DNA of 47,783 bases, from contig JABXKD010000020.1 in the NCBI GenBank assembly GCA_013375475.1, forward strand, positions 1-47,783. The letters are read 5' to 3'. Origin of the DNA: Promethearchaeota archaeon (GTDB lineage: Archaea > Asgardarchaeota > Lokiarchaeia > Sigyniarchaeales > SOKP01). Position 1 is the stretch's first letter; the number at the start of each line of letters is the position of its first letter. The translations under genes were made by a program, and so were the position numbers. This document shows positions 13,151 to 16,609 of this stretch, one piece after another. The notes beneath the pieces are model-generated. The model was not told where the DNA came from. It worked only from the letters and a program-made list of their open reading frames with translations, and did no database searches.

Positions 13151-14030
13151 CTATTCCTTAGTTTCTTCATCAAGTTCTTTTTCTGATTCTAAAGAGATTT
13201 CAGAAACGTCTTCTTCTTCGACTTCATCGAACAACATTTTTTCTACCTCAGTTAATTCTCTTTCTTCCTCGGATACTTCGTAATCTTTTTCAAGTTTCGT
13301 TTTAGTTAATTCCGATATCTTTTTTGCTTGAACTTTTGCTAAAGCTTCATCGTTAATTTTAACTGTGTCGCCCATTCTTATATCTGCGTGCATAATCTTA
13401 ACAATAATCCCAAGAGTACCTGATTTTTGAATACATTGAGCTACTCCTCTGTCTACTCCTTCTTGAGCCGGGTGACCCGATTTTTTCATCGTGCCTGCCC
13501 TAAAAACCGTAGTTCGAGCTCGTTGTGAAGTTACTTTGCCAGAGACGATAATTTCTGTTCCTTTCGCACCGGAATCCATTATTTTTCTCAAAATGTAATA
13601 CCCGGCTCTTCTATAATGCCTTCCTCGATCTAACGAATACGCTAAACGCTCAGCCATAATTTGAGCGTTCAAATCGGGGTTTGGCACTTCTTCTACTTCA
13701 ATTTGGGGCATTAGGCTTAAGAGATTCGATATCCCTTAATTTTCCAGCCCAAATCGTTCTTGAAGAATGTCCGTAATCTCTTGAATACGCTTACCGCCTT
13801 TAAGCTAAAATGTCGAAACGACATTTAAATTTACCTATGACGAGTCCCGGTCGGGACGTTCTAAGCGTAATTCTTACTCCGAGTGGGGTTTTTTGTATAT
13901 CAACACCAGCAAACCCTGCCCGTACGAGTTCAGATCTTAGGTATTCGTTGATTTGCATCAACTTGATGCCCTGCTCAATTTCACTTCGCGGGAGTTTTCC
14001 TCTTGCGATAAAGTGTTTAGCGAGTGGCAC
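13151..14030 (-). CDS. rps3: 30S ribosomal protein uS3, four predicted exons: 14030-14010, 13979-13831, 13799-13741, 13710-13151 (262 aa spliced)
   Basis: SD GGTGA (14040-14036) + GTG at 14030; joined exons give MPLAKHF|IEQGIKLMQINEYLRSELVRAGFAGVDIQKTPLGVRITLRTSRPGLVIGK|GGKRIQEITDILQERFGLE|MPQIEVEEVPNPDLNAQIMAERL...; 789 nt continuous frame; expected operon position. Confidence 0.9.
13711..13740 (-). other. Putative BHB-like mRNA intron 3 in rps3 (30 nt, carries an in-frame TAA)
   Basis: ATTAAGGGATATCGAATCTCTTAAGCCTAA; 9-bp stem TTAAGGGAT/ATCTCTTAA, exon pairing GGGC/GCCC; central helix imperfect. Confidence 0.75.
13800..13830 (-). other. Putative BHB/BHL mRNA intron 2 in rps3 (31 nt, frameshifting, inside the KH GxxG loop)
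   Basis: ATTTAAATGTCGTTTCGACATTTTAGCTTAA; stem AAATGTCG/CGACATTT; helix AGGT/GCTT each followed by AAA; removal restores IGKGGKR. Confidence 0.8.
13980..14009 (-). other. Putative canonical BHB mRNA intron 1 in rps3 (30 nt, in frame)
   Basis: ATCGCAAGAGGAAAACTCCCGCGAAGTGAA; outer GCTAAA/TTGAGC, central CACT/AGTG, bulges TTA and AAA, inner TCGC/GCGA + GAG/CTC; absent from the upstream duplicate HFIEQ. Confidence 0.8.
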
Positions 14031-14286
14031 CAGTTTCACCTTTGATGATCTTTTGATTCATATTTTTCCAACAATTTTTCCAATGATTATTAAAATCTTC
14101 TTTAAATCTCATGAAGTAAATCAAATTAGTTGTTGATTAAATTTGAATTTTATTAAAATAAAAAAAAAGCATGATAAGGTAGCATTAGAAAATGCGAAAA
14201 TTTAAAAGGAGTATTGTAAAACCTAGTGGTTCCAGCGTATAATTAAAAAAAGTAACTGTGAAGAGTAAGAAAAAATCAAAATAACT

Positions 14287-14715
14287 TTATGGTAGCTGTA
14301 TGGCTGATAGAAAAGGCCGCAACAGAGATTGAATTTTTTGAATTTCGTTATCTATGGCATCAACTTCGGGTGAAGAATACCCATCCATCAAATCCATTGA
14401 AGAATTAGTAAGTTCCATTAAAAACTCAAACTTCCTAATTAATTTTTTTTTATCATCACTATCTATATATAGTCTATATTCCTCAACTTCATCCTTAAAA
14501 ATAGAATCGAGTAGGTTATCGTAAGAAAGAGGTTTGCTCTTCATACTACATTGAAAAATTCTATTAATATTCTCTTCCAAATCCCCTAAAAGCTGAGTTA
14601 ATGTACTCACTAAGGAAAATCTCTGAAAATCTTTTTTTTCATCGTTTTTTAAGGAGAACTTCAATATACCTAAAAAAATACTGTAATTTCGTAAAATTCT
14701 TTTCAAAGAGGACAA
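14287..14715 (-). CDS. Hypothetical helical protein within the rps3 insert
   Basis: 142-aa ORF with TTG start, no recognised motif. Confidence 0.5.
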   Translation of the reverse strand: MSSLKRILRNYSIFLGILKFSLKNDEKKDFQRFSLVSTLTQLLGDLEENINRIFQCSMKSKPLSYDNLLDSIFKDEVEEYRLYIDSDDKKKLIRKFEFLMELTNSSMDLMDGYSSPEVDAIDNEIQKIQSLLRPFLSAIQLP

Positions 14716-14766
14716 AAATCACACCTACTAACTATTAAAAATAAAAAAAATATATAAATATATCTA

Positions 14767-16041
14767 TTAAGGAAGCCTGTTAGTGCGGGCAAGGTTGATC
14801 AAGTCCTGCCACGTATATCCAGTGTGTCTCTTCAAGAAACGATTTGCATTAGTTTTTAATGAATTCTCAGGATATCCAAAATCTTGTGACAATCCCAAAT
14901 CAGTTACGAGTTTACCCATGTTATAATAAAATCTACTTGCTCCTAAATTATTGAGGTTAGCACGAATTAAATCTATTGCCATTCCAAGATAGTTTTTAAT
15001 AGGTATTCCGAGTGCTTCGAGTTTTAGATCCCTAAAGGTAATTCCGATTTTTGATTGAATATAAAAACTCCCTCTGTTCCGAAGAGTATTCTCTGAAATT
15101 GTATATAAAGTTTCAAAACCTAGATCAATGCAAAGTCTTGCTGCGCTGTAACGAGTATCCTCACGATTCTCTCTGATCAAGTCAATTGCTCTTTCATGTA
15201 ACTCTAGTTTCTCAGGAGATGGAAAGACATCAGCCAAGACTTCGTCTATTCCTTTATTAAAAACTTTCCTAAAAACGAAAGCAACATAGTCATTTCGTTT
15301 TTTAATATTATTTCCGTATATCGGTCTATCAAATCCTAAAAGATTGCTCCTAAGAGTTGCATAATCTTTTACGCCAAGTTTGATTTGTTCCATGAAGATC
15401 TCTTTAATGACTTTAAATCTTAAATCGTCGAATGTCATTCCTGATACATAATAATCAGAATATAAAGTAAAGAGAGTATTTGCTATTACATTTTCTGGTG
15501 CGGCCAGAATTTTATCCAAACCTGTTAAGCTAGAAATTTCTTTAACATTGTAGCCTAGCCTAAAATGATCATTAATCTTACCCAAGTATGGCAACAAATC
15601 CTTATCGACAAATAATTTGCCGATATCCATTCTATTAAATCCTAGTTTATGCAGTTCAGAAAGAAGTGGGAAATAAAATTTATTTCGCGCGTTACTGAAA
15701 CTCCCAAAGTAATTCCTAATCATACTCCTTATTGTTGAAATCTTACCTTTGTAACCCACATACTTCAATGACTGAAAGATCTGACTTATTGAAAGTCCCA
15801 GTGAAACCCCCTTTACAATGAAAGGCAGTAAATAATCCCCTGAAATAGGACCTAGAGACTTAATATCCCTATTTAAAGCAACACCCTTCTTCCTTTGTTC
15901 TAGAATTCTACCAATCTCCGCAGAACTTAAAGCTTGATCAGAGAATAGCAACTTTTTGAACTTAAATTTAAATCTCTTATTGATGGCATCCGAAATAGCC
16001 TTGTTATCAAATTTTCTAAAAAAGCTCTCAATCGTGTTCAC
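14767..16041 (-). CDS. Hypothetical basic protein with repeated HTH-like units
   Basis: 424 aa; internal repeat AIDLIR.N...DLG...EN(T/S)L...G.T..DL twice; last copy RFLKRHTGYTWQDLINLAR resembles an AraC-type HTH. Confidence 0.6.
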   Translation of the reverse strand: MNTIESFFRKFDNKAISDAINKRFKFKFKKLLFSDQALSSAEIGRILEQRKKGVALNRDIKSLGPISGDYLLPFIVKGVSLGLSISQIFQSLKYVGYKGKISTIRSMIRNYFGSFSNARNKFYFPLLSELHKLGFNRMDIGKLFVDKDLLPYLGKINDHFRLGYNVKEISSLTGLDKILAAPENVIANTLFTLYSDYYVSGMTFDDLRFKVIKEIFMEQIKLGVKDYATLRSNLLGFDRPIYGNNIKKRNDYVAFVFRKVFNKGIDEVLADVFPSPEKLELHERAIDLIRENREDTRYSAARLCIDLGFETLYTISENTLRNRGSFYIQSKIGITFRDLKLEALGIPIKNYLGMAIDLIRANLNNLGASRFYYNMGKLVTDLGLSQDFGYPENSLKTNANRFLKRHTGYTWQDLINLARTNRLP

Positions 16042-16300
16042 TTTTTTATAATTTTGACTATGGAAAAGTATGAATGGCGGGTATTTATAACCTCACTCTG
16101 TTTTAATTTTTCTTCTTAAAAAATACAATTTTTTTTGTTAAGAACGCAAACCTAATTTTAAACAGCTCACAAGCAAAATTAAAGTAGGGGAATTAAAACA
16201 ACTATTAGATAGATACCCTGATGTTTTATATGAATATGAAGACTACGATAAATTTAATAAAACAATAATCAAGATTTTTAATTTTGAAACTCAATGATCT

Positions 16301-16609
16301 TTAACAACTTCCATATCCATTAATCCATAATCGCGGTTTTTCGTTAAGGATTTTCTCTACTAATTTTTTTTCTTGTTTAATCTTTCGAAAATGAGCCTTA
16401 GTAATCTCTACTGCGTCGCTCCAAATCGCAATTATTAGCCTTCCAATAACGTGATTAGGAGCTCCCTCTGTGTGTATCTCATCGTCTATAGCAGCAGAAA
16501 AACGGTAGAGTTCACCTTCTTTCATATCTTGTGGATCCTCTAAATCCGCTGAAACCTTATACTTCCCCTTATATTTTTGTTCAATAAAATGTTTCGCTAA
16601 AGGGCTCAT
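16301..16609 (-). CDS. Chimeric ORF: first 11 residues of uS3 (MSPLAKHFIEQ, 16609-16577) fused to an unrelated 91-aa sequence
   Basis: Starts 49 nt after the rpl22 stop, where rps3 is expected; identity to uS3 ends abruptly after Q11. Confidence 0.7.
   Translation of the reverse strand: MSPLAKHFIEQKYKGKYKVSADLEDPQDMKEGELYRFSAAIDDEIHTEGAPNHVIGRLIIAIWSDAVEITKAHFRKIKQEKKLVEKILNEKPRLWINGYGSC

Follow-up and report, generated by a model that had tools for sequence, protein, structure and literature searches.

A foreign, intron-bearing 5' part of rps3 at the rpl22-rps3 junction of a Promethearchaeota archaeon, probably acquired by recombination from an unsampled lineage

How does a gene for a ribosomal protein come to have its first codons twice, in two synonymous spellings? 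This question is raised by the rpl22-rps3 junction of contig JABXKD010000020.1 (assembly GCA_013375475.1, Promethearchaeota archaeon), whose 47,783 nt form the window analyzed here. All elements of the locus are located on the minus strand, in the archaeal order rps19 (17716-17183), rpl22 (17138-16659), rps3, and then rpl29 and further genes. An initial annotation of the window described an open reading frame (ORF) after rpl22 that starts with MSPLAKHFIEQ and then diverges, followed by a second start with its own Shine-Dalgarno (SD) sequence, and both were found as described: the ORF occupies 16609-16301, and the GTG at 14030 is preceded by GGTGA (14040-14036) with a spacer of 5 nt. Once a 30-nt insert (14009-13980) is removed, the second start again encodes PLAKHFIEQ, with synonymous differences in six of the nine codons (P, L, A, H, E, and Q), the number given at the outset. 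The complete rps3 gene is single-copy in the genome. Comparison with the sister genome G014, which shows 98% protein identity (30 relatives were searched with the C-terminal part of rps3), leads to an answer that we consider quite probable, namely that a stretch of foreign chromosome from an unsampled Promethearchaeia lineage recombined into the rpl22-rps3 junction of a G014-like genome. In the direction of transcription, the features are:

16659-17138, minus strand: rpl22, native left flank (Pfam Ribosomal_L22, E = 1e-21)
16577-16609, minus strand: stub of the native rps3, ATG and 10 codons (MSPLAKHFIEQ), with 33 of 33 bases equal to the G014 rps3 start
14031-16576, minus strand: insert of 2,546 bases, judged foreign, lacking in G014 and in 74 of the 75 relatives surveyed
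16301-16609, minus strand: ORF102, a chimera in which native rps3 codons 1-11 continue in frame into the 3' portion of another, unrelated gene
16042-16300, minus strand: AT-rich, ORF-free spacer (GC 0.25), with an inner break of the insert (5' loss of the nuclease-family gene) at its lower edge
14767-16041, minus strand: ORF424, 5'-truncated member of a family with a putative GIY-YIG nuclease and tandem helix-turn-helix (HTH)-like modules
14287-14715, minus strand: ORF142, small helical companion ORF, with counterparts in the genomes G084 and G074 at the same position
14031-14286, minus strand: imported rps3 leader, with the SD GGTGA (14040-14036) 5 nt before the GTG
14010-14030, minus strand: rps3 exon 1 (GTG PLAKHF), donor type
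13980-14009, minus strand: mini-intron 1, 30 nt, canonical bulge-helix-bulge (BHB)
13831-13979, minus strand: rps3 exon 2, donor type, 21 of 49 codons ending in G or C
13800-13830, minus strand: mini-intron 2, 31 nt, shifts the frame, BHB-like
13741-13799, minus strand: rps3 exon 3, donor type
13711-13740, minus strand: mini-intron 3, 30 nt, holds stop codons, relaxed BHB
13441-13710, minus strand: start of rps3 exon 4, mosaic zone of donor and native sequence, 93.3% identical to G014 with 18 differences, the lowest at 13445
13151-13440, minus strand: rest of rps3 exon 4, native, 99.3% identical to G014

In G014, rpl22 is followed by an uninterrupted rps3 that starts with MSPLAKHFIEQGIKLMQ and contains neither the insert nor introns, which is the outcome of the synteny check in close relatives proposed by the initial annotation. 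At 17200-16577, the window is 99.0% identical to G014 (6 mismatches in 624), and the left flank from 16577 up to 17760 holds just seven scattered differences. The stub of the native rps3 belongs to this flank and is still placed behind the native rpl22-rps3 spacer. Homology to G014 then breaks sharply between 16577 and 16576, after the CAA of codon 11, and resumes at the second rps3 copy. There, the identity of the spliced coding sequence (CDS) to G014 rises from 75.5% (CDS positions 1-229) through 93.3% (230-499) and 98.6% (500-640) to 100% (641-789), with 56 differences in the 229 bases of CDS 1-229 as opposed to 2 in the 290 bases of CDS 500-789 (Fisher p = 1e-19). Differences in the mosaic zone are scattered, and many of them are unique to the window and represent G/C third positions. 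The same trend had been picked up by hand in the initial annotation, which counted 21 G/C-ending codons among the 49 of exon 2 and placed the fading of G/C-rich third positions around 13470. The recount was identical, the neighboring ribosomal-protein genes have fractions of 0.20-0.32, and the last group of differences from G014 is located at 13445-13478, followed by only two down to the stop codon. Overall GC content amounts to 0.42-0.44 at 13450-14050 vs. approximately 0.30-0.37 around it, and the raised GC at third codon positions in the imported 5' part is not unusual for the genus, whose other species span 0.41-0.46. Thus, the right end is resolved by homologous recombination, while the left end is an illegitimate in-frame fusion without a second homologous crossover.

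The phylogenetic placement of the two parts was examined with 63 rps3 sequences, a non-random set to which six sequences were added for their split matches and from which G006 was dropped, its 3' part being truncated. In the tree of the first 229 CDS bases, the window is found in a starred clade with G132, G011, and G144 (support 100/87), with a best identity of 85% and a long end branch. In the tree of the last 290 CDS bases, it is the sister of G014 (100/97), and forcing the 3' part into the G132 clade is rejected by the approximately unbiased (AU) test (p-AU 5e-38). The separate phylogenies of the 5' and 3' parts, likewise proposed at the outset, therefore group the two parts with different relatives. 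The 5' part of G014 itself has G140 (87%) and G127 (83%) as its nearest kin, the same as its 3' part. Since the native 33-base stub is still in place and the kin of the two G014 parts are congruent, the window must be the recipient. Judged from these comparisons, the intron-bearing 5' part of rps3 is foreign, and the polarity of the exchange is apparent.

The sequence of events that we infer is the following. The incoming DNA would have carried, in this order, the 3' part of a small gene, the truncated ORF424, ORF142, and a donor rps3 leader (SD GGTGA, GTG), followed by the first ~230-590 bases of the donor rps3 with three BHB mini-introns of 30-31 nt. At the right end, homologous recombination inside rps3 would have produced a gene that is donor-type down to 13711, mosaic at 13710-13445, and native below. 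At the left end, an illegitimate joint right after native codon 11 would have left the 11-codon stub reading in frame into the cut small gene (ORF102), and the 5' end would thus have become seemingly duplicated and recoded. Recombination with homology on one side is the simplest process giving a graded right and an abrupt left border, and a donor that, like G084, lacked rpl22 beside the block would make it plausible. Only products that keep an intact rps3 survive, which would account for the presence of a separate SD and start codon on the imported piece. With regard to the "incoming element" of the initial annotation, the displacement of the native allele by foreign DNA stands, while the notion of an autonomous element is replaced by that of a block of foreign chromosome. 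As stated there, neither an integrase nor a transposase is present (none matched in Pfam, PHROGs, PADLOC, or NCBIfam), and terminal repeats are likewise missing, as the search returned only AT-rich chance matches. A site-specific integrative element is not indicated either: no recombinase family was found, the two rps3-start copies differ, and there is no other terminal repeat.

The cargo of the exchanged rps3 part consists of three mini-introns. The minimum-free-energy fold of intron 1 shows a 4-bp helix (CACU/AGUG), 3-nt bulges (UUA and AAA), and inner and outer helices, with the second bulge, AAA, sitting in the flanking loop (z = -3.35). Introns 2 and 3 follow the same plan with correct 3-nt bulges and a central helix of two to four pairs, G-U included. 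In an alignment of nine sequences of intron 3, 96.8% of cells are paired compared with 81.2% in shuffles (0 of 500 reach the observed value) and at most 60% in slid controls; eleven pairs change on both sides, one of them in the central helix. Intron 2 exhibits 13 consensus pairs, five of them with compensatory change. Intron 1 was left out of this covariation count, as its four sequences include three that are nearly alike. Excision after the second bulge base at each site yields a CDS of 789 nt, and the product (...KHF|IEQG, VIGK|GGKR, and GLE|MPQ) equals the uninterrupted G014 protein across all three joints. Among the aligned sequences, the site of intron 1 is also occupied in G072, G076, and G102, homologues of intron 2 are present in G074, G075, G086, G107, and G123, and those of intron 3 in the same five genomes as well as in G084, G111, and G008; only the window carries all three introns.

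As rps3 is single-copy and essential, the introns must leave the mRNA. From the gene content, their removal would most likely be carried out by the encoded tRNA-splicing endonuclease and the RtcB ligase; the genome contains two tRNA_int_endo genes (99 and 70 bits) and one RtcB gene (561 bits). The former are two separate genes of ~200 aa with a tRNA-intron-endonuclease domain (G000:C215:33041-33265 and G000:C133:34125-34373). Such an arrangement may reflect a two-subunit enzyme of broad specificity. Two other ways of dealing with the interruptions were considered and rejected. In the case of translational bypassing, a landing codon at intron 3 that matches the take-off codon would be out of frame, and GT..AG borders of the spliceosomal type can be seen by eye in intron 2 only and are absent from intron 3.

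The remainder of the insert is made up of fragments and small genes. From K12 onward (KYKGKY...), ORF102 shares 74% identity with P0008, a metagenome protein with a different N-terminus. Since this homology begins only at K12, the left joint connects native codon 11, in frame, with an internal part of another gene. No homologue of the ORF102 body was identified in 134 genomes of the family, except for one match at E = 0.004. Counterparts of ORF142 with 41-44% identity are located between the family gene and rps3 in G084 and G074; the ORF142 family occurs in 5 of 54 genomes of the sister genus to which G084 belongs and in 0 of 41 other genomes of the genus of the window. It has no family match in Pfam, PHROGs, PADLOC, or NCBIfam, and its structural neighbors in the ESM Atlas are generic helical bundles only. 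The same four databases returned nothing significant for ORF102 and ORF424, and all three ORFs are single-copy in this genome. As for the rps3 leader, a GGTGA or GGAGA motif, 5 nt, and a TTG or GTG start lacking the Ser2 codon are also found in the intron-bearing alleles of G084, G074, G075, G086, G107, and G123.

ORF424 is the largest of these ORFs. It is 80% identical to P0002, a protein labeled "AraC-like DNA-binding protein" in one source, and 56% identical to the last 416 aa of an ORF of at least 3377 aa in G084. Homology to both begins at 16020 (residue 8), which indicates that ORF424 is a 5'-truncated fragment. Only positions 182-354 of the 355 positions of the family profile are covered, so that ORF424 retains the complete DNA-binding tail of helical HTH-like modules, together with the final strand and helix of the nuclease fold, but has lost the GIY, YIG, and Arg part. 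The ESM Atlas offered only weak leads for ORF424 (AraC-type HTH at template modeling scores of 0.22-0.29). A profile search detected no other, intact family member in this genome, and ORF424 would appear to be an inactive remnant.

In full-length relatives, the motif GK.KY.W.G..YE..D...G....G.T..P...R...Y is common N-terminal to the ORF424-like tail, with G..YE, G.T, and R...Y conserved. This region was modeled from an alignment of 23 rows (predicted local distance difference test score 91.9), and the model was compared with 48,161 solved chains. The best match was the catalytic domain of I-TevI (Z 7.2, root-mean-square deviation 2.7, 90 of 92 residues), followed by PD-T4-3 (5.5), T4 EndoII (5.3), and the GIY-YIG domain of UvrC (4.3), with unrelated rows at 3.4 or below; the ranking was unchanged with an earlier model of lower quality. 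The Seg enzymes of T4 belong to the GIY-YIG class as well. Several results argue against this assignment. The Z score of I-TevI is below 8, and Foldseek against the PDB returned no match at E <= 0.001 with either model, I-TevI being ranked third to fourth (probability value 0.63-0.66 with the second model). Furthermore, the family-alignment profile had 0 matches among PDB sequences, ten distant family members showed no GIY-YIG match in Pfam, and the best Pfam GIY-YIG match of the family has E = 0.055. On balance, the modeled structure suggests that the full-length relatives probably possess a GIY-YIG fold.

The family is rare, with 30 representatives at E <= 0.001 among 1.84 billion proteins, and patchy, with one match each in 13 of 135 genomes (G000 included). 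Its members can be optional between genomes that are 97-99% identical. Other members are stand-alone proteins of 750-850 aa, for example an 850-aa protein in G005. One of them is encoded in G014, within a segment of 5.9 kb that is absent from the window at 20149-20161, ~2.5 kb upstream of rps19 (L184 576-6469; G014:C131:13000-21000). This segment codes for a 752-aa nuclease/HTH family member with a Zn-ribbon N-terminus, which is the protein with the Pfam match mentioned above, as well as for two further proteins, one of 1006 aa that is membrane-bound or secreted and a membrane protein of 110 aa; ~13 bases of the window match at either edge of the gap. G009 exhibits a 727-aa counterpart at the same distance upstream of rps19, beside a similar large ORF. 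This copy (contig C352) was initially considered to be a further rps3-linked one and was rejected, as the order rps19-rpl22-rps3 is the ordinary one there and the family gene is located ~2.5 kb upstream of rps19. In another protein, P0032 (248 aa), the C-terminal 145 aa of enolase (Pfam E = 4e-74) continue in frame into a family nuclease domain with a canonical-looking GFTYRI...AYQVGHST motif. It may represent a second housekeeping gene invaded at its end.

Related arrangements were searched for at the rpl22-rps3 junction of other genomes. G084, from the sister genus, carries the giant ORF, ORF153, and an rps3 with intron 3 that starts with GGTGA, 5 nt, and TTG. The giant ORF (L043, G084:C8, 4331-14464) runs off the contig end at no less than 3377 aa; it has no Pfam match, and its C-terminal 599 aa have no match in PADLOC or NCBIfam. 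In this genome, rps19-rpl22 are located on another contig, adjoining a convergent, unrelated gene, which means that the operon is physically split. While a search with ORF424 alone for related loci in genome and metagenome contigs returned nothing, an alignment-based search identified one metagenome contig (L103 1-2590) that repeats the G084 arrangement and opens inside a homologous giant ORF, with an open 5' end. In G074, likewise of the sister genus, rpl22 is followed by two unrelated ORFs, a 102-aa remnant of an ORF424 tail, ORF136, and an rps3 with introns 2 and 3. In G123, the rpl22 stop is joined directly to a dead rps3 copy (codons ~24-58, TGA) that ends at VIGK, the site of intron 2; it is followed by approximately 375 unrelated bases and then by an entire rps3, which has an SD of its own and contains introns 2 and 3. 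At this locus (L057, G123:C12; 2120-2225 and 1545-1745), the dead copy is fused to the rpl22 stop via ~10 bases of microhomology. By sequence, G123 is a second, independent instance of a duplicated 5' end.

In a survey of 80 further loci from named Promethearchaeota and related metagenome-assembled genomes (MAGs), rpl22 was visible in 75 and directly beside rps3 in 74. The exception, L162, has a 1.4-kb insert (2319-3763) between rpl22 and an intron-less rps3 with a GTG start, encoding a 217-aa HTH-module protein and a 122-aa ORF. Both were rejected as relatives of the insert genes: the former is only weakly like ORF424 (22% over 86 aa, pairwise E = 0.002), and the latter is not like ORF142. 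The junction is thus normally invariant, yet it has been hit repeatedly. Introns are present at four of the five loci with a rearranged junction (the window, G074, G084, and G123, not L162), a set that was partly chosen by the feature counted and whose members are related to one another. Conversely, introns occur without any insert in eight genomes, and L162 shows the opposite combination. In three genomes with introns 2 and 3 and no large insert, G075 (L058), G107 (L059), and G086 (L060), the rpl22-rps3 spacer measures ~90 bases vs. the usual ~45, and the start context is GGTGA-TAATTG. Finally, five assemblies from the genus break contigs in the first third of rps3, namely G015 (C26/C32), G145 (C106/C112), G009 (C352/C463), G001 (C77/C258), and G003 (C77), some of them with overlapping rps3 5' pieces on two contigs. 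This suggests strain-level heterogeneity of alleles at this spot.

A chimeric assembly, named as a possible refutation in the initial annotation, would have linked sequences of two strains or species that occur together, once at the 33-base rps3 start that they share and once inside rps3. Fourteen public runs hold words of the stretch, and four of them (X1-X4, from two studies) were examined as per-run contigs over 12800-17400. X1 and X2 are possibly source samples and as such not independent, X3 is another sample of the same study, and X4 belongs to a second study; parts of the stretch that are uncovered in X3 and X4 were not taken as absence. In X1, one non-branching contig (13373-16606, 3,234 bases, 0 differences, depth 38) runs through the mosaic zone and the insert in full and reaches 29-30 bases into the stub. 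Contigs of X2 (13683-16606), X3 (13646-15778), and X4 (16357-16606, 13853-14143, and others) carry the insert without a single difference as well. The flanks with zero differences in X1 have a depth of 44-51 and the only alternative flanks one of 23-27, so that the depth-38 haplotype can only continue into the former. It is true that all public contigs end at 16606, that no-insert strains co-occur, since loose ends at 16578 in X2 and X3 continue into an uninterrupted rps3, that variants of the G014 type are found at 13565-13640 in X2-X4, and that the contamination of the MAG favors such a scenario. The common end is explained by the fact that contigs built with k = 31 stop where sequence is common to co-occurring strains. 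In addition, the insert ends on sequence identical to the rps3 start, which cannot be chance, and comparable rearranged junctions exist in other assemblies (G074, G123, and L162). The insert haplotype is therefore real, and an assembly artifact is highly improbable.

Given a real haplotype, a more specific version of the preferred explanation is provided by collaborative homing. Here, a full-length GIY-YIG/HTH member would cut an intron-less rps3 near its 5' end, intron-bearing and recoded alleles would be immune, and repair would copy the nuclease gene, its neighbor, and the rps3 5' part, the window being a decayed footprint of such an event. The resemblance of the modeled nuclease region to I-TevI and its conserved motif, the rare, patchy, and optional distribution of the family, and its recurrence at one site ahead of rps3 (window, G074, and G084) are in favor of this model, as are the one-sided gradient of donor markers beside the insert, the introns at most of the rearranged junctions, and the fusion of another member to the enolase 3' end. 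The mechanism as such is known from phages (PMC6083498). However, ORF424 lacks the catalytic half and no intact member was found in this genome, the left end is illegitimate and not the second homologous resolution that homing gives, and in G084 the domain forms the tail of a giant ORF. Moreover, introns and inserts occur without each other (see above), sequence searches of Pfam and PDB gave no significant GIY-YIG match and Foldseek none at its threshold, cleavage specificity is putative, and the loci counted are partly selected and interrelated. It is hence a tentative proposal, and in our view a rather doubtful one, that free-standing GIY-YIG homing endonucleases of Promethearchaeia target the rps3 5' end, perhaps along with further housekeeping genes, enolase among them, and co-mobilize BHB mini-introns that protect the site.

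The giant ORF of G084 invites a different interpretation, in which it resembles a polymorphic toxin with a C-terminal nuclease and ORF142 is the immunity gene; a tail fragment and the immunity gene would have been gained as immunity is useful, with rps3 as a mere homologous anchor. The nuclease and HTH tail indeed ends this ORF, which has membrane-like segments and is followed by a small conserved ORF, and the small ORF is kept in all three rps3-linked copies, while ORF142-like genes also occur elsewhere alone. In Vibrio, displacement of type VI secretion system effectors by recombination with one-sided homology leaves immunity genes behind (PMC5361080). Nevertheless, neither a delivery, toxin, nor immunity family was detected in Pfam, PADLOC, or NCBIfam, a sequence-reading tail of more than 400 aa is unusual for a toxin tip, other family members stand alone, and ORF142 has no detectable family and only generic helical bundles as structural neighbors, which makes this interpretation unlikely. 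Less probable still is a reverse polarity, with the insert-bearing arrangement being the older one and G014 having lost the insert by conversion with an intron-less allele. Homing-type genes are gained and lost repeatedly, and both haplotypes co-occur in samples, but the stub at 16577-16609 shows that an rps3 of the G014 type once stood there, the 5' part of G014 shares its nearest kin with its 3' part, and the insert genes are absent from the other genomes of the same genus (g1) that were searched. The two copies of the same nine codons that bracket the insert might also bring to mind a local tandem duplication of the rps3 start with fast synonymous divergence, or an integrase-type element carrying a copy of its target. 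This idea is scarcely credible, as the divergent part groups with alleles of other species, the introns and leader are homologous to those of other genomes, and there is neither an integrase nor an identical att-like repeat, the two copies differing at most of their codons.

Recombination of a foreign chromosomal block thus remains the preferred explanation, against which a number of points have to be weighed. On the 229-base 5' alignment, the AU test fails to reject a grouping of the window with G014 (p = 0.121). The closest sampled sequences reach only 85% (imported exons), 80% (ORF424), and 74% (ORF102), leaving the donor lineage itself unsampled. Likewise unsampled is the donor DNA to the left of the left joint, P0008 being available as a protein only. 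In the public contigs, that joint is bridged by just 29-30 bases (k-1), short of the bar of 31 on both sides, and the MAG consists of 288 contigs with 6.4% contamination. Concerning the introns, the central helix of introns 2 and 3 comprises just two to three Watson-Crick or wobble pairs, and splicing as well as transcription through the insert are predicted; in X12, the single RNA run among those listed, 0.05 of the words sampled were present.

If the preferred explanation is correct, part of an essential "core" ribosomal-protein gene was exchanged between Asgard species, which bears on the use of such genes as vertical markers. Allele replacement by recombination would furthermore constitute a concrete route for BHB mRNA introns into an intron-less lineage. 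The link of the imported allele to a remnant of a nuclease family makes it testable whether selfish nucleases are tied to the spread of introns in the archaea most closely related to eukaryotes, and collaborative homing, if true, would represent a DNA-level route for introns into protein-coding genes of these organisms.

Recombinational exchange of gene segments, one-sided-homology recombination, and homing are known kinds of events. Recombination with homology on one side has been described as homology-facilitated illegitimate recombination (HFIR) in bacteria (PMC3240628). It shares with the present case a homologous anchor at one end and a non-homologous joint at the other, and the patchwork of donor segments close to the anchor is reminiscent of the mosaics that transformation produces (PMC13344027); HFIR is reported from naturally competent bacteria and from conjugation, not from Asgard archaea. 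Among homing systems, the free-standing endonuclease F-CphI acts in collaboration with a neighboring psbA intron in cyanophages (PMC6083498), and intronless homing by free-standing GIY-YIG endonucleases offers a further comparison (PMC2790892). Here as there, an optional gene of a nuclease family separates two conserved ones, and co-conversion has carried donor sequence in a gradient into the conserved neighbor, which has introns near the insertion, unlike the intron-less recipient allele; the nuclease gene decays after invasion. In contrast to phage homing, the locus is part of an archaeal chromosome, its introns would be protein-spliced BHB mini-introns instead of group I ribozymes, the nuclease copy is truncated, any cleavage is putative, and the domain ends a giant protein in one relative; moreover, co-conversion of donor sequence is seen on the right side only, the left side being an abrupt illegitimate joint.

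For the introns themselves, the nearest precedent is cbf5 of Crenarchaeota, an archaeal protein-coding gene with a short BHB intron (PMC2738675). A literature search in a partial library identified this case only and no paper on rps3 or Asgard mRNA introns; in a preprint on tRNA introns, a term search found "protein-coding" once, in an unrelated sense. Both cases have in common a short mRNA intron with a BHB motif that is gained and lost among relatives and whose splicing, predicted in the case of rps3, restores the frame. The present locus differs in that the gene is rps3, the phylum is another one, three introns are located within 320 bases, and the recent lateral transfer of an intron-bearing allele is visible. 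What is new, compared with all of these systems, is the setting in an Asgard ribosomal-protein operon, the cargo of three BHB mRNA introns, and the link to a previously undescribed GIY-YIG/HTH family.

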